NCBI RefSeq assembly: GCF_010672695.1
Contig: NZ_JAAHGB010000033.1
Location: forward strand, 7,965-71,964
Length of the DNA stretch: 64,000 nucleotides
Direction of reading: 5' to 3'
Source: Okeania sp. SIO1H4
GTDB taxonomy: Bacteria > Cyanobacteriota > Cyanobacteriia > Cyanobacteriales > Microcoleaceae
Under the pieces are notes generated by a model. It was not told the origin of the DNA, made no database searches, and worked only from the letters and a program-made list of their open reading frames with translations. Within the stretch, counting starts at the first letter, position 1; each line of letters begins with the position of its first letter. Below are positions 8,318 through 56,842 of this stretch, piece by piece. A program made the position numbers and the translations under genes.

Positions 8318-9574
8318 TCATCGATAAACTGGTAAAGTAAACTGAAAACAACTACCATTATTTGGACTAGACTCTACCCAAATTTTGCCGTAGTGGGATA
8401 AAATAATCCTTTGACATAAAGCTAGACCAATACCATAACCTTCTTGTGACTCATCACGCTTGAGTCTAAAACTATCTTCAAAAATACGACCGTGATTTTC
8501 TTTAGGAATACCAGGACCACTATCACAAATTGTCACTTGAATCTTTTGAGTAGTGCGATCGAGGATTAAAACCTGTATTTTTCCTTGTTTAGGAGTATAC
8601 TTTATGGCATTATCCAGCAAATTAACTATTACCTGACGTATTCTTTCTCGGTCAGCATAAACTAACGGTAAATCATTAGGAATATCCGTTTTCAACTGCA
8701 AATCTTTTGACTTAAGTCGGTCTCGAAAACTAATTATCACCTCGCGACACAATGCCCCCAAATCTAATTTTTCAGGCTGAATTTGTAACTGCGTACTTTT
8801 GCCTCTTGGCCTCTCCAGAATATCTGTAATCATTCTGTCAATCACACGAACTTGGTAACGTGCCTGCTTAATTAGCCTTTCCATAAGAGTCGGAGAGCTT
8901 CTAGGAAACTCACTATTAACAGTTTTTTGAGTTGATTCTAAAGTCTCTAGAGCCAATGAAACTGCTGTCAGAGGGTTGCGTAAGTCATGAGCCAACATGG
9001 CCACAATACGGTCTTTAAATCTTAGTTGAGCTTGAAGTTGTTCCTTTTCCTGTTTGAGACGAAAAATTTCATCTGACATTTGCATTAATTCTGCAGCACA
9101 GTCGATGGAATTAACAGATAATTTTTGATTAACAACCTGTTTAGACTGAGGTTGAGAGTTATGAGTGTGCCAATATTCGGCGATGGAACGTTGCCAGCGT
9201 GGCCACCAATATTCCAATTTGGCAATTAAATCTGTACCAGTTAGGGTTTGTCTCGGTTCAGGATAAATTTTGAGTAGAGCAGGAGTAGCAATTAACTTGA
9301 AGTGCTCTGCCATATAGGGTTGCTCTTGTACGTCAATGACTTGAAATTCAAAGGGATAATCATAATCTTTTTCTAAATTGTTGAGGGACTTACGAATGGC
9401 TTGAATTTGCTCTTGAGAGCCAGGACGTTTGTTGATAAACAATAAAATCTGTAAAAATCCCTGCTCATTACTATTATTATTATTATTAGATTTTTCTGAA
9501 GACACCTGTAAAAAATTTCTAGGTAAGTGGGATAGGCTATTAGCATCTCTTTTGCAAATAGAATAATTTACCAT
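8318..9574 (-). CDS. sasA: Adaptive-response sensory histidine kinase SasA (KaiB-like N-domain + HisKA + HATPase)
   Basis: KaiB-fold segment QPYMAEHFKLIATPALLKIYPEPRQTLTGTDL...WWPRWQ. This is followed by the H-box LAMLAHDLRNPL and the N, G1, G2 boxes (LLDNAIKY, DSGPGI, GYGIGL). Confidence 0.85.
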   Translation of the reverse strand: MVNYSICKRDANSLSHLPRNFLQVSSEKSNNNNNSNEQGFLQILLFINKRPGSQEQIQAIRKSLNNLEKDYDYPFEFQVIDVQEQPYMAEHFKLIATPALLKIYPEPRQTLTGTDLIAKLEYWWPRWQRSIAEYWHTHNSQPQSKQVVNQKLSVNSIDCAAELMQMSDEIFRLKQEKEQLQAQLRFKDRIVAMLAHDLRNPLTAVSLALETLESTQKTVNSEFPRSSPTLMERLIKQARYQVRVIDRMITDILERPRGKSTQLQIQPEKLDLGALCREVIISFRDRLKSKDLQLKTDIPNDLPLVYADRERIRQVIVNLLDNAIKYTPKQGKIQVLILDRTTQKIQVTICDSGPGIPKENHGRIFEDSFRLKRDESQEGYGIGLALCQRIILSHYGKIWVESSPNNGSCFQFTLPVYR

Positions 9575-10019
9575 TTAGTAGTAATCCATATTGAATATTC
9601 CCGCCTACCTAGATACTTGGCCCTATGCTGTAAGCGGGGCGGGGTTTACCACTTACGATTAAAAAACTAATTGGATGAATTTTATATTTTTCTATTAATG
9701 GCCTATAAAAGAAAATTAGTTTCTGAGATAATTTAATATCTATTTCATATTGTGACACTAATACTTTCAATTCGCGTTCTAGAGTATATTGAGATTATCT
9801 AATGCTGACTTGACATAATTGATATTTTATAGTAAGTGAATACAGATAAATCTTACCAGTGGTTATGATGACTCAAGTGAGGGAGAATTTTCTGGTAAGT
9901 GGTATACTGCAAGCTTAAATTTTATAGTAGTTGGAGGTTTGCTGAGGATACTCTCAGAACTTCATGTCTCAGTTGTCAAAAAAATGTAATTTTAAATTTT
10001 GAAATATTGCTAAAAATGG

Positions 10020-26378: not shown

Positions 26379-27479
26379 ATGCAAACACTTGGCAATGAAG
26401 AAAGCAGCACCATGTCTACAACTAACGACAGTGGAGTTTTCTGGACACCTGTTTGGCGATCGCTAGGCTGGTATGTTGAGGCCACTGAAGAAGAAGGTGC
26501 AGCTTTATTAGGAGGTAATATCAGGTTCAAAGACCTCTCTGGGCAATTACTAGGTGCCCATGTAGCCCATGCTGGTTTAATCATGCTGTGGGCAGGTGCC
26601 ATGACACTGTTTGAGCTATCTCAGTTTGACCCCAGCGTACCAATGTACGAGCAAAAACTAATATTACTACCTCATCTAGCAACATTAGGTATTGGTATCG
26701 AAGCAGGGGTACAAACAATCGACACCTATCCCTACTATGTCATCGGTATGCTGCATCTCATCAGTTCTGCTGTTTTGGGAGCAGGAGGTATCTACCATGC
26801 AGTTTTAGGGCCGAAACAGCTTGATGAGAAAGGTTTTGGCTACGACTGGGAAGATGGCAACAAGATGACTACTATTTTGGGTATTCATCTAGTGCTGTTG
26901 GGGGTGGGAGCATCTCTATTGGTCATTAAAGCAACGGTTTTAGGTGGTATTTACGATCCACTAATAGAACAAGTAAGGTTAATACAGCCTAATCTCGATC
27001 CCGTAAGAATTTTCGGTTATCTGTTTGGCTTTAGTCCTAATGGTTGGACAATTACTGGCATGGCTAGCGTAGATAATCTCGAAGATGTGGTCGGTGGTCA
27101 TGTCTGGGTGAGCCTACTCTGCACTGTTGGTGGTCTATTTCACATTATTTCCAAACCTACGGGTTGGGCAAAACAAATACTAATTTGGTCCGGAGAGGCT
27201 TACTTGTCTTACAGTTTAGGGGCACTTGCGATCGCAGGATTTAGCGTAGCTGTCTTTATCTCCACCAACGAAACTGTTTATCCTAGCGTGTTTTATAGTC
27301 CTATTGGCAGCGACTCTGTGCGAACTGCTCTTGCTACCGTTCATGCTGGATTAGGTTTCCTAGCTTTGCTCGGACATTTATGGCACGCTTACCGAGCGCG
27401 AGCTGCTACTCGTAAAGTATTTTATGGAACGTTCTTTGACTTTATGGCTAAGAATGTTACACCTATTACACCTGCTTGA
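26379..27479 (+). CDS. isiA: Chlorophyll-binding protein of the IsiA/CP43' (Pcb) family, copy 1
   Basis: Six CP43-like helices with the conserved motif [17 protein letters not shown], but no large CP43 lumenal loop E. Confidence 0.85.
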
Positions 27480-27670
27480 ATAGAAGTCAAAATCTAAGTT
27501 CATTGAAGAAGGAGACAGGAGACAGGAGACAGGAGGAAAATTACATGGGGATAGTCTTCGACAAGCCACTCCGCGTCTACGCTCCCCCAAGTAATGCGTG
27601 AACATCGCAAGTGACGGTGGGGTATTAAAGCCATAAAGAAAATGATAATTATATAAGGAGAACAATAGTA

Positions 27671-28699
27671 ATGACTGTCGTAACAGATGAGAATCTGCAA
27701 ATCCCATGGCGGGCAGGTAATGCTCGGCTTGTTAACCTATCTGGCAAGCTATTGGGCGCTCATGTAGCCCATGCTGGCTTAATTGTACTCTGGGCTGGAG
27801 CTATTACTTTGTTTGAAGTTGCCAACTTTGATTCCTCCCTACCAATGTACGAACAGGGCTTAATTGTACTGCCTAATCTAGCCCGCTTGGGATTTGGAGT
27901 TGGTGAAGGAGGTGTCATTGATACCTACCCCTACTTTGTGATTGGGGTACTGCATTTGATTAGTTCGGCGTTTTTAGGAGCAGGTGGTATATTCCACGCT
28001 CTCAGAGGTCCATCTAAACTAGAAGACAAATTTTCTTTCTTTGGCTATAGCTGGGATAATCCAGGTAAAATGACAACTATCCTGGGTATCCATCTAGTCT
28101 TATTAGGAATCGGAGCATTTTTACTTGTAGCAAAAGCGATTGCATTTGGAGGGTTATACGATCCAGTAGTTCAAAATTTACGAGTAATATCAAATCCCAC
28201 TCTAAATCCTATTACCATTTTCGGCTACCTATTTGGTACAGAAGGACGTTTCTGGCTGGCTGGTGTTAACTCTTTAGAAGATGTAGTAGGCGGTCACATT
28301 TGGATTGGTGCTATCTGCATTTTGGGTGGTATCTGGCATATTCGCACCGTACCCTTTGACTGGGCTAAAGGCTTATTTGTCTGGTCAGGAGAAGCATATT
28401 TGTCTTACAGTATTGGCGCAGTCAGCTTAATGGCATTTGTCGCAACATTGTTTGTGTCCGTTAACTCCCTGGTATTTCCCACAGAATTTTTCGGACCAAC
28501 TTTGACTCTGGTGTTCGATCGCTTTCCTGTGTTTGTTAGTACTGATGGAGCCTTGACTGCAAGAGTATGGTTGGCAAATGCTCACTTCTGGTTAGGATTT
28601 TTCTTCCTGCAAGGACATATATTCCACGCCCTCCGGGCAGCAGGTTATAGCTTCACCGAAGGCAGAGTAGTCACATTTACAAGAGGTCAAGTAAGTTAG
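27671..28699 (+). CDS. IsiA/CP43'-family chlorophyll-binding protein, copy 2
   Basis: [17 protein letters not shown] and a CP43-like helix pattern. 342 aa. Confidence 0.85.
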
Positions 28700-28701
28700 T
28701 T

Positions 28702-30267
28702 ATGACTGTAACTAAATCAAATCCATTGAGGTTTTTAGGCTTTTCAACAGATAATAATGTTGATGTTGCGAACTATGTTAGTGATTCCCAAGAACCTTAT
28801 TCTTGGTGGGCAGGTAATTTTCGCTTTGTTAACTTGTCTGGAAAATTATTGGGAGCGCACATTGCTCATGCAGGGTTGATCGTACTCTGGACTGGAGCAA
28901 TGACTCTGTTTGAGCTATCAAAATTCGATCCTAGTCTACCCATGTACGACCAAGGACTGATTTTGCTGCCCCACATGGCGACTCTGGGTATAGGGGTTGG
29001 CGCAAATGGTGAAATTATTGATACTTATCCCTACTTTGCTATTGGTGTTATCCATCTCGTTAGTTCAGCAATTCTAGGCGCTGGTGGCATTTTCCATGCC
29101 GTGCTTGGACCTGACAAACTTGATGAAAAGGGATTTGGCTATCAGTGGAATGATGGCAAGAAAATGACTACTATCCTTGGTATTCATCTACTGCTACTGG
29201 GGATGGGAGCATTTTTGCTAGTAGCCAAAGCTATGTATTTTGATGGTTTGTATGACCCGGCGATCGCCAATGTGCGACTGATTACTGAACCCACTCTCAA
29301 CCCACAGACTATCTTCGGTTACCTCGTCGGTATCACCCCTGATGGCTGGACGTTGAAGGGTATGGCTGCTGTCAACTCTTTAGAAGATGTAATAGGCGGT
29401 CACATTTGGATTGGTAGTATCTGTATTCTGGGTGGTCTCTGGCATATTAATACTGCTCCTACAAAATGGGCTAAGGGTCTTTTTGTCTGGTCTGGAGAAG
29501 CATATCTTGCTTATAGTCAGGCTGCTCTAGCTTACATGGGCTTTTTCGCTGCCTACTTTGTCTGGGTGAATGATACAGTCTATCCTTCAGTATTTTATGG
29601 TCCTGTAGGTATGACTAATGTTGATGGTACAATTACTCCTCGTACCTGGTTGATGTTGTTCCAACTCATCTTTGCCTGTCTGCTACTGGCAGGTCACTTT
29701 TGGCATGGTCTCAGAGCTAGAGCGATCGCCAGTGGATTTGTCTTCAGTAATATGAAGTTCAATCCCGGTGCCCTCTATGGAGACACTCAGTTTAATAACG
29801 AATCTCTAGTGACTGGTATTGTACAGCCTTTCCAGAACAATCCTCAATTGGGTAATTTGGCAACCCCAATTAATTCCAGTCAGCTTACCATCACTTGGGT
29901 TAAGAACTTGCCAATTTACCGCAATGGTTTATCTCCTATTGCACGGGGTCTAGAAATTGGCATGGCTCATGGCTACCTATTATTAGGGCCTTTTCTCAAG
30001 CTCGGACCATTGCGTAACACCGACCAAGCTCTTCTGGCTGGAGGTGGTAGTGCATCTGGCTTAGTAGTGATTTTAAGTATCTGTCTGTTTGTTTATGGGG
30101 CGGTAGTGTTTCAAGGTTCTAGAGAACCAAGAGGCGTTTTACCGGAGAACCTACAAACTTATCAGGAATGGAGTTTGTTTACCTCTGGTTTTCTCATTGG
30201 AGGACTAGGCGGTGTAGTTTTTGCCTGCTTTATCCTTATAGAAATCGGGCGAGCGGGAATTTTGTAA
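28702..30267 (+). CDS. IsiA/CP43'-PsaL fusion protein (chlorophyll-binding domain + C-terminal PsaL-like domain)
   Basis: N-terminal 340 aa are CP43'-like. The C-terminal segment [38 protein letters not shown] plus two TM helices matches PSI subunit PsaL. Confidence 0.85.
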
Positions 30268-50088: not shown

Positions 50089-50427
50089 ATGACTATAAAT
50101 ATCGCCATAATAGCAGCGATCGCCTATGGTATATTAGCCATTGTTGGGGGCATTATTGGATATACGAAAGTAGGCAGCAAAATATCTTTAATATCTGGTA
50201 GTATCAGTGGTTTACTACTAATTGTTAGTGGAATTATTCAACTAATGGGCATGAATTGGGGTCTAATATTTTCTACCCTCATTACAACTATTCTAGTAAT
50301 TACATTCATTATTCGTTTAGCAAAAACTCGTAAAATGATGCCTGCGGGATTAATGATTTTAACTGGAGTTGCTGCTGTAGCAGTTATGGTTTATGAAATT
50401 ACCATAAACAATTCAGCCACAATTTAA
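50089..50427 (+). CDS. Small 4-TM membrane protein (TMEM14-like)
   Basis: 112 aa with four Gly/Ile-rich hydrophobic helices. Confidence 0.45.
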   Translation: MTINIAIIAAIAYGILAIVGGIIGYTKVGSKISLISGSISGLLLIVSGIIQLMGMNWGLIFSTLITTILVITFIIRLAKTRKMMPAGLMILTGVAAVAVMVYEITINNSATI

Positions 50428-51039
50428 AAAGAAACGTAAGTATTTAGCCGTCAGCTTTCAGCTCCATTAGAACTAATGACTATAGCCTTTAAAGCAGAAG
50501 TTACCATTGACAGATTTTATCTAATTAAAAATATGAATTAAAAGTTTCCCTAGTAACTTCTAAAGTCTTAAAAAATGCTTACTTCATTTATTAATCAAGA
50601 TGAGAGCTGACCACTAATCACTGTTTGTGGAGCATTCAGGCACGGAAATCCTTATACCAATTTCATAAACTTGAGCTACTTAGGTTTGGAGTAGTCAGTA
50701 GTCAGTAGTCAGTAGTCAGGAGGTAAGGTGAGTAGCCTTACTTTTTGAATTTGGTATTACAAAGAAACAAAGAATATGGAAGAGATAAAAAAGTAGAAAC
50801 TTGCTCAATAGACATATAGATATCTCCAGAAAAGAGATAACAGGTAACAGGAAGAAATAATAGAAATCATCAATTATTTCTCCCTACTCCCCTACTCCCC
50901 TACTCCCTGCTCCCTACTCCCTACTCCCTAAATTGGGATTAATCAACCCATTAGCCGTACCAAAAAGATTAATTGGACTCTTACCATCAGTAATTAAAAC
51001 ACTCTGAAGACCAAGCCCCTACAACAACCTCGCCTGCAT

Positions 51040-52676
51040 TTATGGGCCAGCTTGAGCGATCGCCCGAATTGTCTCAGCCCCCAAAGCCTCCACTTTTTGC
51101 TGAAACTCAGTAGCAGTAATTTCAGCCATTTGCCTTGCCTTCTCAATCTCTAAATTATTCAGTGTCTGCTGATGGGCTAACTCAGTCTCCTGACGCGCCC
51201 TCAACTGAGCCATCTCAGCCTCATGGCGAATCCGTGCTGCTTCTACTTCCTGCTGCGCCAAATTCACCGCCAACTGGCCTTGAAAAGGAGATAACATATA
51301 AGCTTGAGGTCCATTGACTAATTTTAGTTCCCCACTTTGAACATCCCGTACATATATACCTTCATTTTTGTCTAGGGGAATAGCCTGAAGTTTTTCTAAT
51401 ACTTCTAATTCCACTGGGGGAATATAATCTCTTGGCCCAGTAATCATCCATAAATCTCCTGGTTGCCGAGTAATAACGTTTGCTCCTGTTCCCTCGGTGA
51501 AAGTTTCCTCAACTCTGATTAGGAGTGCTTCTTGTTCACCAAGAATATAGACCTTTTTAATTCCTGTTTCTAAATCTTCTCCTGGGTGCAAAAAGAAAGA
51601 TGTTCTGCCCTGACGCACTTCTTTCATACCCCACTGCGGTTTACCATCTGCATCTATGGGATTAGTTACTATGCACCATTCGCGATCGCTTAAAGTAGTG
51701 ATTTTGACTTCTCCCACTACTTCTTCATAAACGTCGGGAATATGAATTTCAGCATCTGCAAAAGTAACTAACTATTCATATCCCGCTTTGCGTTGCTGAC
51801 CAAAAATATCAGTAAAAGTCCGTTTTGCTTTTAGATGTAGTGCTTGACGTTCGGTTAATACATAGGCATCAATAGTATCGACAATTTCTTCATCTACTCC
51901 AGGCAAATAAGCACCTTCTTCCCTGACCAACCATTATTCCCCAGTTCTACGTCTGTTACCTTGACGATCTATACAATTTTGTCGTGCCAGCAGTCGTAAG
52001 GCTTGGTTAGGTTTAATTATTTTAGCTATAACTGTGACTACCACTTCAACTTCTACCCTGGGAGTGTAAGTTCCTGGCCCCTCAAATAACCATTCATCCC
52101 CTGTCGTACGAGTGACAGTTTGAGACTCTCCTGCAACGATAACTGTATCAGTAAAATCTCGTATTGCTTTGAGACGTAGAGTTTGGTTTGTGTCAATTAC
52201 TTGTAGTTGAGTTACATCTTCTTCGAGTATTTCTCCTGGATATAGTGGGAAAGGGTCTTGAGCAAAGCGAATTTCCAGATCGCCATATTTGAGTCTAATT
52301 TAACCATACTCATCGGCCACAAGTTGATCTGAACTATAGCAATGTGCGCTGGCATATTTACACATTATTTTTTGTACACCTTTTCTAAAATGCACTTTGA
52401 ACTGGGCCTTGTAAATACCTGAGCGCTCATTGCTATATTTCTTAGTACAGGGTTAGCTGCTACACAATAATGGCGAGGTGGAACTACAATTGTCAGTTGT
52501 GGTTGTCAGACTAACCTTTCTGCATCTCCAAGGGTAATGGTTTGAGGGCCTATTTCTAGTCTGATAACACCAGTGTTATTGTCAAGAACATGAATATACT
52601 GTTGTGGCTTCAGGAGAATTATACCATTGTTCTCTATTGTAATTGGATATTCTGTGGTACTTTTTATTTTACTCAT
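51040..52676 (-). pseudogene. Major vault protein (MVP)-like gene, decayed by nonsense codons, frameshifts and a large internal deletion. The intact C-terminal ORF 51040..51717 has two MVP repeats joined directly to the end of the cap-helix.
   Basis: Translations across 51718-52676 give [107 protein letters not shown] and GYE*LVTFADAE. These match human MVP ([90 protein letters not shown]). Stops replace conserved E/W, and the shoulder and cap domains are mostly missing. Confidence 0.8.
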
Positions 52677-52739
52677 AGTTTAATAGTTTTGTAACTAGAA
52701 ATCTTAAGTTATTCATTATCCATTATTAATTATCTCTTA

Positions 52740-55118
52740 CTATCGTCGCCAAATTTTAATAGTTCTGTCTTTACTACCACTAGCAATACTATTACCATCA
52801 GGACTAAAAGTAACTGTATAAATCTCATCTTTATGCCCGGTCAAAGTACTAACTAATTCTCCTGTTTCTAAATCCCATATCTTAATATTATTATCCTTAC
52901 TGCCACTAGCAATATATCGACCATCTTCGCTAATATCAACAGATACAACTTCAGCAGTATGACCAAGAATAGTTTTGATTAATTCTCCTGTTTTTAAGCT
53001 CCAAATTTTAATAGTATTATCGTAACTCCCACTCACTATTTTTTCCCCATCTGGACTAATATCAACAGACCTAATTACTCCTTCATGTCCAGTCAATGTA
53101 TTAATTAATTCTCCAGTATATAAATCTTCAATTTTTATAGTTTGATCTGCACTACCACTAACCAATATTCTGCCGTCAGGACTAATAGCAATAGAATAAA
53201 CTACATCTGAGTGATCGGGGAAATTAAAAATTAAGAAACCTGTTTCTAAATCCCAAACTTTAACTGTTTTATCTCCACTAGCACTAGCAATTGTTTGATT
53301 ATCAGAACTCATAGCAACTGACCAAACAGGTGCCCAATGTTCAAATACTCGAAATAATTCTCCTGTTTCCAAATTCCAGATCATTACTCTCCAATCATAA
53401 GTACCTACCACTAATTTAGTACCATTATTATTCAAAGCAACTGACCAAATTGGAGAATCATCTGCAGCTAATGTGTTGATAATTTTTCCTGTAGGAACTT
53501 CTAAAATTTTTACTGTTGTATCTCTACTTCCAGTAACTAAATTTTCGCCATTATCACTAAATGCAAGAGCGCCTATAGAAGCATTAAACCTAGACAAATC
53601 TTCAACTTGATAATTCTGCCAATTTAGACCTTGTTGACAATTTTGTAAAAGAGATTGAGCTTCAGCAAAAATGCTAGATTTTTCACTAATTAAAGTTCCT
53701 TGATTGATACATTCTTCATAGTTGCGCTCTATGTATAAGTTTTTTACAAAATTAAATTTTGCCGATTCTTGTTCTTGCTGTTGTAATACTTGTTGTTGAC
53801 GTAATTGTAAATAATTTTGGAATTTAAGATATCTATATATAGCAAAGATTATTACAATTAAGGTAGCGATAAATCCTAAAATCAACTGCCAGTTAAAAGA
53901 TGATTGTTTGTTATTATTGCTAAATATTTTTTTAAATTTAGTAAGTAGAGATTTTGGTAAAACTCTGTTTTCTATTAATTCTATATCTTCTTGAGTTAGT
54001 CCTAAAATTTGCTGTAGACGCTCTAACTCCTGGCGAGTTTCTTGACTAAAAGGATATTCTTCCTGAATCGCAGCTTTTAATGTTTCTTCATATCTTTCTC
54101 CTTTCATCCGATATTTACGGTAAGGATTTAATACTTCATCCTCAATTATTTCCGTTTCTTCCCGGGAGAGTTCTAAACTTTCTCTAAGTTCATCTAAAAT
54201 TCTTCTCCCGACAATAGAAATATCTCCTCTATCGCTAGCTCGACGAATAACCTCTTCCCGATAAATTTCTTTATTATCTGTAGCGAAACTTGGAAACTCA
54301 TTAATTTTTTTTAAATCTGCTATAACTTCTGCTGCTGACTGGTAACGTTCGTGAAAGTTATAGCGCACCATTTTATCTAAAATATCTGCTAGAGAAGTAG
54401 AACAATTTGTTAGGTATCGCCAAAAAATCTCTTTTTTTTCACCATTTTCATTATCCTTTAGTTTCGATAATTCGCTGCTAGGCAATCCCGTAATTGCCTG
54501 AATGCCAATCATTCCTAAAGCATAAATATCACTATTTAATTGGGGATTATATTCAAATTGTTCAATTGGCATATATTCCATTGTGCCAATCCTAGCTGTA
54601 GGATTTTGCTGACCAATATTAATTTCTTTAACAGCTCCAAAATCAATTAATACTAATTGATTATCCGATTTTCTTCTAATTAAATTAGCAGGCTTAATAT
54701 CTCGATGAATAACACTATTTTCATGCACAAATACTAAAATTTCTAATACTTCATTGATAATTAAAATTACTTGTTTTTCAGATAGGGGTTTACCAGGTAA
54801 TATTTCATTGTCTAAAGATTGACCAGGAATAAAAGATTGAACTAGAAAAAACTCTCGATCTTCTTCAAAATATGCAAGTAGTTTAGGAATTCGATCATGT
54901 TGAGAAAGCTTTTCTAGCATCTGTGCTTCTTTTTGAAATCGATCGCGAACGATATTAATTAATCTTCGATCATAAATACTTGGTTGTAGATGCTTAATAA
55001 AACATTGTGCTTCTCCAGGACGACGAATGTCTAAGGCCAGATAAGCATGGCCAATTTCCCCTGATTCAATAATTTTAATAATTTGATAGCGTCCATCTAA
55101 AATATTACCAATCATCAT
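52740..55118 (-). CDS. Ser/Thr protein kinase with C-terminal WD40 beta-propeller (7 repeats)
   Basis: Kinase subdomains (VIHRDIKPANL, DFG, coiled/TM segment) followed by seven WD repeats each ending in ...W(D/S). 792 aa. Confidence 0.85.
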   Translation of the reverse strand: MMIGNILDGRYQIIKIIESGEIGHAYLALDIRRPGEAQCFIKHLQPSIYDRRLINIVRDRFQKEAQMLEKLSQHDRIPKLLAYFEEDREFFLVQSFIPGQSLDNEILPGKPLSEKQVILIINEVLEILVFVHENSVIHRDIKPANLIRRKSDNQLVLIDFGAVKEINIGQQNPTARIGTMEYMPIEQFEYNPQLNSDIYALGMIGIQAITGLPSSELSKLKDNENGEKKEIFWRYLTNCSTSLADILDKMVRYNFHERYQSAAEVIADLKKINEFPSFATDNKEIYREEVIRRASDRGDISIVGRRILDELRESLELSREETEIIEDEVLNPYRKYRMKGERYEETLKAAIQEEYPFSQETRQELERLQQILGLTQEDIELIENRVLPKSLLTKFKKIFSNNNKQSSFNWQLILGFIATLIVIIFAIYRYLKFQNYLQLRQQQVLQQQEQESAKFNFVKNLYIERNYEECINQGTLISEKSSIFAEAQSLLQNCQQGLNWQNYQVEDLSRFNASIGALAFSDNGENLVTGSRDTTVKILEVPTGKIINTLAADDSPIWSVALNNNGTKLVVGTYDWRVMIWNLETGELFRVFEHWAPVWSVAMSSDNQTIASASGDKTVKVWDLETGFLIFNFPDHSDVVYSIAISPDGRILVSGSADQTIKIEDLYTGELINTLTGHEGVIRSVDISPDGEKIVSGSYDNTIKIWSLKTGELIKTILGHTAEVVSVDISEDGRYIASGSKDNNIKIWDLETGELVSTLTGHKDEIYTVTFSPDGNSIASGSKDRTIKIWRR

Positions 55119-55430
55119 TATTGTGGTAGAGCCTTTTTTAGTTGATTATGGCATGAAACAATTTACTCATTTTGACATCTACAATTATAAAAAAAATAGT
55201 TTTAATTAAGAATATTTTCCTGATTCCAAAACTGAAAATTAGAAGTTTAATTGTAACCCTTAATCATTAATTGATAGAGATATGTTACTCCAGAACACAA
55301 ATTAATTCTGATAAAAAGTGTAATATAGAAACCAAAATAATAATTTTGGCCACTCAAAACAAAAGCACAATTTTAACAGTGCTATCATAGACAGAAGCAA
55401 AGCTAAAATCAGGTATAGGGAGTTAAGTGG

Positions 55431-55880
55431 ATGAGCCATGAAATAATAGCAATTAGGAGACCTGTTAGACCAAAACAGCCTATTGAGCCAAATTCTCCAA
55501 AGGAGGCGCTTCACGAACAAATTGAGTCAAAAGTAGAAAAACCAAATTCAATAAAAAATAGCCCCTCATCAAGAACAGAAGGTACGAATGAAAGGCAATT
55601 AGGAAAACCAATAAGTAAATCAGAAAGACCCAAAAAACCAGGAAAACCAAAGCTAAAAGAATCTATCCAACAAGTCACCAATGCTAACGGAAAAGTTTTT
55701 AGTTCGGGGGATAAGATTTTAGTATCAGCACCCTGGAGTAGTATTGTAGAAGCTGAAATTACGGGTTTTTATAAAAGTCCTGGAGGTTCAATCTGGGCAA
55801 TTTTTCTTCCCCAAGAATCTCTACCTAAGTGGAAGTGGGAAAAAGGTTGCATCCGAGCTGAATTATTAAAACAAGCATAA
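55431..55880 (+). CDS. Hypothetical Lys/Pro-rich protein
   Basis: ORF only. Low-complexity N-terminus, possible small C-terminal domain. Confidence 0.3.
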   Translation: MSHEIIAIRRPVRPKQPIEPNSPKEALHEQIESKVEKPNSIKNSPSSRTEGTNERQLGKPISKSERPKKPGKPKLKESIQQVTNANGKVFSSGDKILVSAPWSSIVEAEITGFYKSPGGSIWAIFLPQESLPKWKWEKGCIRAELLKQA

Positions 55881-56842
55881 TTAAGGCAAAAAAAATCTTA
55901 AATTCAGGATAATTTAGCATCTAAAAAAAATCCTAAAAAATATAACAGGATGATTTGGGTTGTGTAGAAAATATCCTGAATCAAATTAAGAGGAAACAGG
56001 GAAAAAATATCCTGAATAAAGGGAGGGGGGAGAGGATATATTTTAAACTTTTCTCCTGTTCCATAAATATTTAATCAAACTTGATATAACTGATACTAAA
56101 TCTGATTTAGATAGGTTACTTGTTAAGGTAGTAAATATTTATCCAAATGGTTAAATTCAAACAAATCAATTTCTTAAAGTGCTGAAAGTGTTAGTTTTTC
56201 AGGAGTTAATTCTTGAGCAAATTGGAAAACAAAATTTTCTTGCTGTTTAGTTTCTATTGTGTATTGAAGAGTTTCTCTGACCTTAGCGATCGCCTCACTA
56301 TCAGTTCCGGTGCTCCCTACTCCCTCTCTTGGTGAGCGTTCCTTGCCTTGGTCGATTGGATATGGCGTTAGCGCAACGGATCTGCCAGAGCGGGTTTCCT
56401 CGCCATTTCACCCTACGGGAAGCTCCAAAGATCGACCGCTTGCGTCTGTCGCACCCCGCGGGGTCGCACCGCTGCTCCCTACTCCCTAAATTTTTGATTG
56501 TGGTTATTCAAACAGACATGATATAATAGTAAAAATCCTTAAAAAAAATTTAGAGACGCGATCGCCCACATCTCTAAAATTACTATTCGACTATTTCAGC
56601 CAGAATTGATATCCTCTCGACGTTGCGCTTAGGCGACAACGTGGGATTCCTAACCATCACTGATTAGGTTTTTCTGTTCCCTCTTGCCTCCTCCGGAGGA
56701 GCTGCGCTAACAGAGGATCTGCCTCCGAGGTCTTTCCCTCTTTTTGGTCTTAAGGTCGCTCCACAGTACGTCACCAATCCGATGGCTCCCCTAGACACTG
56801 CTAGCCCAGCAGCCTCAATTTAAGTATTATAGCACATGGTTT

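Follow-up and report, generated by a model that had tools for sequence, protein, structure and literature searches.

Major vault protein, or MVP, is best known from eukaryotes, and established structural work on MVP has shown that its shoulder and cap helix are needed for assembly of the vault shell. A cyanobacterial MVP family has already been published (PMC3762200; bioRxiv 10.1101/872010), and transfer from a eukaryote to a cyanobacterium has been discussed for the MVP family as a whole (Daly et al. 2013, PMC3762200). The cyanobacterial proteins, such as those of Moorena producens (F4Y3B4), Allocoleopsis franciscana and Okeania sp. SIO3I5, have in common the Vault, Vault_2 and Vault_4 domains and a C-terminus made of cap helix and cap ring; their usual NCBI name is 'colicin uptake protein', with 'major vault protein' also in use. 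A single search with a threshold of E<=1e-5 gave 2,483 proteins, mostly from filamentous cyanobacteria, so that bacterial MVP homologues are not rare, contrary to a first-pass annotation of the DNA studied here. Among the best 120 of the 2,483 matches, nearly all are full-length cyanobacterial proteins (860-930 aa), and none is an intact MVP under the name O. hirsuta. In the literature searched, no experiment describes vault particles from bacteria, and a 2026 preprint on the TEP1 NADase, consulted for partners of MVP in bacteria, has nothing on the bacterial protein.

The locus reported here lies on the minus strand of a 64,000-nucleotide stretch of DNA from Okeania sp. SIO1H4 (the window), and is a dead copy of this known cyanobacterial gene family, an ordinary pseudogene. 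It begins with the ancestral ATG (52676-52674) and ends with what was the original stop codon, TAG (50916-50914), thus covering positions 50914-52676, as delimited by tblastn, by DNA alignment and by comparison with rat MVP. We consider it very probable that the locus is the non-functional relic of a vertically inherited cyanobacterial MVP gene in an Okeania hirsuta-type genome.

The longest surviving open reading frame (ORF; 51040-51717, 225 aa, GTG start), annotated by NCBI as a hypothetical protein (WP_240038893.1), carries Vault_2, Vault and one half of Vault_4, fused to a C-terminal portion of the cap helix. Its similarity to MVP repeats is far beyond chance, with Pfam E-values of 4.7e-16 (Vault), 8.8e-10 (Vault_2) and 1.7e-8 (Vault_4). 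When the conceptual translation was stitched across the lesions, it matched the rat and human MVP chains with an E-value of 2e-159, and the Pfam Vault repeat domains (PF01505, PF17794 and PF17796) were found, with E-values of 1e-60 for Vault (four stretches), 1.7e-34 for Vault_2 and 4.3e-8 for Vault_4, of which half of the model was matched. The first-pass annotation had described the remains of an MVP gene, with nonsense codons, a disrupted frame and a large in-frame deletion, and with an ORF in which MVP repeats are followed by the last part of the cap helix; this description holds, and all the MVP-repeat peptides it quoted are found on the minus strand. In the alignment with rat and human MVP (PDB 4V60, 7PKZ), the remnant covers rat residues 5-410 and 735-850 and conserves several motifs, ITDGxSPINLF among them, whereas the part that corresponds to rat residues about 411-734 is deleted. 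It is nevertheless a bacterial sequence closer to the cyanobacterial proteins: over its retained parts the amino-acid identity is 85-88% to intact Okeania-type proteins and 72-77% to other cyanobacterial MVPs. Of the eukaryotic vault partners TEP1, PARP4 and vault RNA, none was seen, either by Rfam on the window or among the neighbours of MVP loci; the Rfam search of the whole window gave only three IsrR matches, far from the locus, and nothing resembling vault RNA, and a tRNA scan of the window returned no tRNA.

The lesions were mapped base by base on a DNA alignment of the remnant to two intact loci, that of Okeania sp. SIO3I5 (L002, 926 aa) and L048. In place of a single uninterrupted ORF of about 860-930 codons, the locus has six in-frame stops, one insertion that shifts the frame and two gaps that keep it, which together identify the locus as a pseudogene of the MVP family and not a functional member. 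The stops comprise one TGA, three TAA and two TAG codons, a mixture of three types that argues against recoding. From the 5' end of the gene, they are TTA (Leu) to TGA at 52506-52508, CAA (Gln) to TAA at 52300-52302, GAA (Glu) to TAA at 51934-51936 in the conserved TGEEWLV motif, TGG (Trp) to TAG at 51772-51774 in the conserved GDEWLV motif, GAA (Glu) to TAA at 51040-51042, which closes the 225-aa ORF, and GAG (Glu) to TAG at 51019-51021. At least two nonsense codons at conserved E/W positions had been proposed at first; the number is six. The MVP homology continues past the end of the ORF to the native stop (50914-50916), within a (GGGAGTA)n heptamer array (50880-50930) that codes for the last codons (GSRE) and this stop; intact P0001/L048 ends alike.

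The largest lesion is a deletion of 942 nt (314 codons), with its junction at 51278-51290, that removed the equivalent of residues 488-801 of the intact protein P0002; indeed, tblastn of P0002 on the window covers residues 1-80, 81-487 and 802-918. Vault_4 thereby keeps its first half only, and Vault_3, the shoulder and an N-terminal portion of the cap helix are gone. Because of this deletion, Pfam detects neither MVP_shoulder (PF11978) nor Vault_3 (PF17795) in the reconstruction, whereas intact P0001 has both (3.2e-54 and 1e-31). About 116 residues of the cap-helix/cap-ring C-terminus are left, and these align to rat MVP 735-850 (domain E-value 1.3e-22). An in-frame deletion of about 350 codons had been estimated before; it is in frame, as proposed, but shorter, and is accompanied by another gap that keeps the frame, 165 nt (55 codons) long, at about 51570. 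The junction of this gap (51563-51576) lies between GAAACAG direct repeats. The closest intact relatives carry there an acidic, partly duplicated insert of 55 residues; it is present in L043 as well as in L002 and L048, and the more distant L044 is without it. The difference may therefore go back to a deletion in the pseudogene lineage or to sequence gained by the intact relatives.

The frame is shifted only once, by a miniature element (MITE) of 99 bp (52337-52435) which, together with a duplicated flanking TA (52335-52437), adds 101 nt; what had been read as several frameshifts in the first repeats is thus this single event. The element has 14-bp terminal inverted repeats (TAGCAATG[A/T]GCGCT), and the site is empty in the sister Okeania locus of GCA_010692685.1 (L047), in L002, in L048 and in the Dapis locus (L042). 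Moreover, the same MITE occurs in 13 metagenome contigs at at least 10 differently flanked sites, every one flanked by TA. With its inverted ends, its duplicated target site, its many copies and the existence of an empty site, it qualifies as a TA-targeting MITE. In its size, its 14-bp inverted repeats, its TA duplication, its many unrelated sites and its empty site in a close relative, the element resembles those of Tc1/mariner-IS630 type, a putative assignment based on the TA duplication, with no autonomous partner element identified. Within the window, only one degenerate match to the terminal repeats was found, at 28854.

Comparison with related genomes gives the order of these events. Identical lesions are present in GCA_003838225.1, GCA_010672745.1 and GCA_010672505.1. 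The sister Okeania group represented by L047, at 0.76% divergence, shares with the window the 942-nt deletion and four of the stops (at 52300, 51934, 51772 and 51019), and is without the MITE and the other two: the first of the six codons is still TTA in L047, as in L002, L048 and L042, and the fifth is still GAA. This nested subset points to stepwise decay. We suggest that MVP function was lost in the common ancestor of the SIO2G4 and O. hirsuta groups, through the 942-nt deletion and four of the nonsense mutations; the 165-nt in-frame gap is likewise common to both groups. Two more nonsense mutations and the frame-shifting, TA-targeting MITE followed in the window lineage. No product capable of building a vault shell could presumably be made from what is left, and the 225-aa ORF would be a by-product of chance stop positions. 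Draft and metagenome-assembled (MAG) genomes are involved, and an intact gene broken by sequencing or assembly errors, as the first-pass annotation had also considered, might be imagined. We give this next to no credence: the six stops, the MITE and the deletions are alike in three separate assemblies, a fourth and divergent one carries the nested subset, and this recurrence across four assemblies shows that the lesions are not sequencing errors. Furthermore, they consist of substitutions, of a complete transposable element with its target-site duplication and of a 942-nt deletion, not of homopolymer indels.

The ancestry of the pseudogene is established by its position. An intact 926-aa orthologue, of the kind the first-pass annotation had proposed to look for in cyanobacteria, is found at the syntenic site in Okeania sp. 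SIO3I5, and the gene order hyp149, STK-WD40 (a Ser/Thr kinase-WD40 gene), MVP, Tmemb_14, DUF815, TerB, 4HBT is common to the window, L002 and the Dapis locus. That a eukaryote, or some donor of high GC content, recently passed on the gene, which then died on arrival, could be suggested by the local GC content (0.40-0.47, against 0.30-0.33 in the immediate flanks), as well as by the eukaryotic renown of MVP and the transfer discussed at family level. This is highly improbable, since the site is occupied by an intact orthologue in Okeania sp. SIO3I5 and by a separate pseudogene in Dapis, the divergence between the remnant and L002 (13.4%) is like that of the flanking genes, and the nearest relatives, at 72-88% identity, are cyanobacterial. 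The 'eukaryote-like' label of the first-pass annotation, taken as a special link with eukaryotes, therefore does not hold, and any inter-domain event would be ancient and a matter of the family rather than of this locus. GC content was also considered by itself as a sign of recent transfer and rejected: the 41.5% of the remnant is within the range of the window's genes (DEAD 43%, MiaB 42%; window mean 37%).

A further reading sees in the ORF a functional truncated MVP, a small protein of 225 aa (232 aa in the sister group) in which two and a half vault repeats are joined in frame to the tail of the cap helix, an architecture that would have arisen with the shoulder deletion, the protein being kept since and expressed by read-through from the STK-WD40 gene. 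Indeed, the ORF is found in at least four assemblies (of strains almost identical in sequence) and annotated by NCBI, the large deletion is in frame, and no terminator-like site separates the kinase gene from the remnant. We nevertheless regard this as a very unlikely alternative. Four to five stops and the frameshift stand between the ORF and any inherited start, it begins at an internal GTG, it has no shoulder and only a minor part of the cap helix, and its end differs by lineage (225 against 232 aa) because a new stop, the fifth, arose in the window lineage. The substitutions point in the same direction. Since the split between the window and L047, the remnant has accumulated 10 nonsynonymous changes (two of them nonsense) against two synonymous ones, a pattern which, for 12 substitutions only, fits neutrality (binomial p=1.0) and departs from the flank-like omega of 0.3 (one-sided p=0.02). 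The flanking genes show 33 nonsynonymous and 34 synonymous changes over the same comparison (omega 0.16-0.38), and Fisher's test of the 12 substitutions of the remnant against them gives p=0.056. Conserved motifs were hit in both lineages (the D of GDEWLV is Y in the window, and a P of DPFPLYPGE is T in L047), and of three nonsynonymous changes in the C-terminal part (codons 880, 883 and 908) two are inside the ORF. We thus favour an MVP gene that appears to be non-functional and to decay neutrally.

Within the Okeania/Dapis clade there seem to have been at least three independent inactivations of MVP (in the O. hirsuta group, in Dapis BLCC-M229 and in Okeania SIO2F4), with the gene retained by sister lineages, a count that relies on a MAG assembly for SIO2F4 and on a Dapis locus with a run of Ns. 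If true, such repeated loss would provide natural knockouts for asking what the cyanobacterial vault protein does. To our knowledge the function of the vault protein is still unknown in any organism, and close relatives that differ in having or lacking a working MVP could for this reason be compared in studies of the bacterial protein. As a dead member of an already known cyanobacterial family, the present locus is itself of little weight; its modest value is that of a clean, datable stepwise decay, with the deletion and first stops preceding the MITE and further stops.

The proposed link with the kinase gene is not borne out. The remnant is indeed co-oriented with and directly downstream of the STK-WD40 gene, from which it is separated by a spacer (52677-52739) of 63 nt, not 60 nt as first given, with GGATAAT-type heptamers and no terminator-like hairpin. 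The former operon inferred from this arrangement is not supported by the relatives: with the kinase as query, tblastn found it next to MVP at three of 46 loci (L001, L002 and L042), thus solely in the Okeania/Dapis block, and the spacing in relatives is wide. From the kinase stop to the MVP ATG there are 1,150 nt, rich in repeats, in L002, where MVP is intact, and about 870 nt in Dapis, the 63-nt distance being restricted to the pseudogene lineage; in L048, with its intact MVP, the 4.2 kb upstream contain no kinase. L002 has an insertion of about 810 nt immediately before the ATG, and about 100 nt of proximal upstream sequence common to L042 and L048 is missing from the window; the short spacing may result from a deletion in the window lineage or from insertions in the longer spacers of its relatives. 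A scan of 50400-55500 gave fewer promoter-like sites than shuffled sequences, and no terminator on the minus strand, and so carries little information. Within 10 kb on either side of MVP at 44 loci there is no conserved partner (TEP1-like, PARP-like or WD40) and only clade-local synteny, the commonest neighbour family, a heterogeneous cluster of sensor kinases, being present at 11 of the 44 at most. STK-WD40 would thus be an unrelated neighbour in a lineage-specific synteny block.

This neighbour, which is context outside the MVP pseudogene, is itself intact (52740-55118, minus strand): its 792 residues comprise a Ser/Thr kinase (Pfam Pkinase 9.6e-34), a hydrophobic segment and a seven-bladed WD40 domain (6.7e-71), and its dN/dS is 0.37-0.44 against L047, L002 and L042.

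Three-frame translation of the minus strand from 52676 to about 50914 recovered all the major vault protein (MVP) peptides quoted in the first-pass annotation, which had read this region as a decayed MVP gene. The 225-aa ORF at 51040-51717 alone matches the Pfam families Vault (4.7e-16), Vault_2 (8.8e-10) and Vault_4 (1.7e-8), and a 52-aa fragment at 51772-51930 matches Vault (5.1e-12). A conceptual protein, made by stitching the frames together with X for each stop, matches the rat and human MVP chains with E ~2e-159 and aligns with rat MVP residues 5-410 and 735-850. Chance similarity to MVP is excluded, and the locus is an MVP pseudogene, a new member, in decayed form, of a known family. 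In NCBI the 225-aa ORF is a hypothetical protein (WP_240038893.1); its exact sequence, like those of the neighbouring Ser/Thr kinase-WD40 gene and DEAD-box helicase gene, is present in Okeania hirsuta and other Okeania assemblies.

The lesions, all on the minus strand, were mapped in a DNA alignment of the window, three other assemblies and two relatives whose gene is intact, L002 (Okeania sp. SIO3I5, 926 aa, protein P0002) and L048 (a MAG, 924 aa, protein P0001). From the ATG (52676-52674), the reading frame meets a first nonsense codon (Leu TTA to TGA, 52508-52506), a 99-bp MITE (52435-52337) that adds 101 nt with its TA duplication and is the sole cause of frame change, and three further nonsense codons, namely Gln CAA to TAA (52302-52300), Glu GAA to TAA within TGEEWLV (51936-51934) and Trp TGG to TAG within GDEWLV (51774-51772). 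Two in-frame gaps follow, one of 165 nt at ~51570 bounded by GAAACAG direct repeats and a 942-nt deletion with its junction at 51290-51278, and then two last nonsense codons, Glu GAA to TAA (51042-51040), which ends the 225-aa ORF, and Glu GAG to TAG (51021-51019). The native stop TAG (50916-50914) lies inside a (GGGAGTA)n heptamer array. The MITE has 14-bp terminal inverted repeats, TAGCAATG[A/T]GCGCT, and belongs to a family of 99-103 bp with these repeats and the TA target duplication conserved (window 52337-52435; L052-L064), whose copies occupy at least 10 different sites on 13 metagenome contigs (JAAUY assemblies); no autonomous element was identified.

The 942-nt deletion, equivalent to P0002 residues 488-801, takes out the second half of Vault_4, the whole of Vault_3 and MVP_shoulder, and the N-terminal part of the cap helix. 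In the Pfam comparison all of these are present in intact P0001 and missing from the reconstruction. Established structural work on MVP has the half-vault held together by the shoulder and the cap-helix coiled coil. The intact Okeania-type MVPs of L002 and L048 also contain a 55-residue insert (P0002 residues ~335-390), in which a partial duplicate of the GTKEVRQGRTSFF segment just before it leads into an acidic stretch; this insert is missing from the window. Heptamer tandem arrays flank the genes (GGGAGTA, GACTACT and GGATAAT, at window 50880-50930, 50690-50719 and 52709-52734, respectively), and one of them encodes the last four MVP codons and the stop in the window and in intact L048 alike. 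The two share their C-terminal ending, from which that of L002 differs.

These disruptions are not sequencing artefacts: the complete lesion set is identical in contigs of GCA_003838225.1, GCA_010672745.1 and GCA_010672505.1. Furthermore, L047 (GCA_010692685.1, SIO2G4 group), which differs from the window by 0.76% of nucleotides, shares both in-frame gaps and four of the stops. Its MITE site is empty, it has TTA where the window has TGA, and it keeps GAA where the window has TAA at 51040, so that its ORF there is 232 aa. This nesting gives the order of events: the deletion and four stops came first, the MITE and two further stops later, in the window lineage. Since the split from L047 the remnant has undergone 12 codon changes, 10 nonsynonymous (2 of them nonsense) and 2 synonymous; with 1,276 nonsynonymous against 380 synonymous sites, this is what neutrality predicts (binomial p=1.0). 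The flanking genes show 33 nonsynonymous and 34 synonymous changes (omega 0.16-0.38); the remnant's changes depart from an omega of 0.3 (one-sided p=0.02) and, against the flanks, give p=0.056 in Fisher's test. The pattern fits neutral change, and constraint like that on the neighbours is unlikely; though the changes number only 12, they point clearly one way and strike conserved motifs.

Searches by tblastn with the window's neighbours revealed that the gene order hyp149, kinase-WD40, MVP, Tmemb_14, DUF815, TerB, 4HBT is common to the window, L002 (where MVP is intact) and L042 (Dapis sp. BLCC-M229). Remnant and L002 differ by 13.4% of nucleotides, on par with the flanking genes. By this shared order and equal divergence, the remnant is the orthologue, inherited vertically, of a gene that still works in L002. 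The kinase gene is itself intact, and its omega of ~0.4 indicates purifying selection. The proposal that the two genes once formed an operon did not hold: a conserved operon is not supported, and among the loci compared the adjacency is confined to Okeania and Dapis. Kinase stop and MVP ATG lie 1,150 nt apart in L002, the genome with both genes intact, with heptamer and repeat-element sequence between them, and ~870 nt apart in Dapis. In L048 the kinase is absent from the 4.2 kb preceding MVP, and tblastn did not find it near MVP in the 40-odd remaining loci, from other cyanobacteria, Beggiatoaceae and Anaerolineae. When all ORFs lying within 10 kb of MVP were compared with one another, no widely conserved partner emerged. 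The 63-nt spacing is confined to the pseudogene lineage and may reflect a deletion there or insertions in the others. The L002 spacer (8851-10001) contains a ~150-nt repeat unit twice and, immediately 5' of the ATG of the still intact gene, a ~810-nt insertion. In the window, the hyp149 and DEAD-box helicase genes are separated by GC-richer non-coding sequence (56290-56830) whose hairpin- or repeat-like parts resemble elements upstream of L048 MVP; Rfam gave nothing for it even at E<=1.

Bacterial MVP homologues had been called rare, which is out of date: of 8,000 candidates scored with the reconstruction as query, 2,483 proteins matched at E<=1e-5. Nearly all of the best 120 are full-length (860-930 aa, Vault repeats and MVP_shoulder), from filamentous cyanobacteria such as Okeania, Moorena, Symploca, Planktothricoides, Microseira, Laspinema, Aerosakkonema and Nostoc sp. 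T09. The family, named 'colicin uptake protein' at NCBI and 'major vault protein' at JGI, has already been described (Daly et al. 2013, PMC3762200; Sokolskyi 2019, bioRxiv 10.1101/872010). The label 'eukaryote-like' was likewise mistaken, the remnant being 85-88% identical to Okeania-type proteins, 72-77% to those of other cyanobacteria and lower still to rat MVP; nothing points to a recent or eukaryotic origin of this copy. A local rise in GC, considered as a sign of transfer, is due to very AT-rich adjacent sequence, the remnant (41.5%) being like other window genes. Whether the family as a whole ever passed between domains has long been asked in the literature (PMC3762200; 10.1101/872010), and this locus has no bearing on the matter. 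Cyanobacterial-type MVP genes (65-71% identity) also occur in Candidatus Parabeggiatoa, Thiomargarita, an Anaerolineae MAG and an Actinomycetota MAG (L037, L038, L040, P0069), which could reflect either transfer between filamentous bacteria or errors in binning.

MVP is kept in SIO3I5 and the L048 MAG. The Dapis pseudogene (L042 10001-11400) has ATG changed to ATC, a deletion of P0002 residues ~222-701 and a 4-nt insertion, and in that of Okeania sp. SIO2F4 (L043 237-1345) codon 9 is a stop and the frame shifts near codon 134, with the 55-residue insert kept. The window has none of these lesions, and therefore MVP seems to have been lost three times or more in the Okeania/Dapis clade; this count is provisional, as the SIO2F4 assembly is a MAG and the Dapis locus contains a run of Ns. 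Mild interest attaches only to the tidy order of decay, the MITE insertion and this apparent repeated loss in one marine cyanobacterial clade.

Elsewhere in the window, three tandem plus-strand ORFs (26379-30267; 366, 342 and 521 aa) are each overlapped antisense by a full-length Rfam match to IsrR (26847-27021, 28052-28229 and 29146-29323, minus strand; 119-131 bits). Since isiA is the gene to which the RNA IsrR is antisense, the three ORFs are probably a tandem cluster of isiA-like genes.
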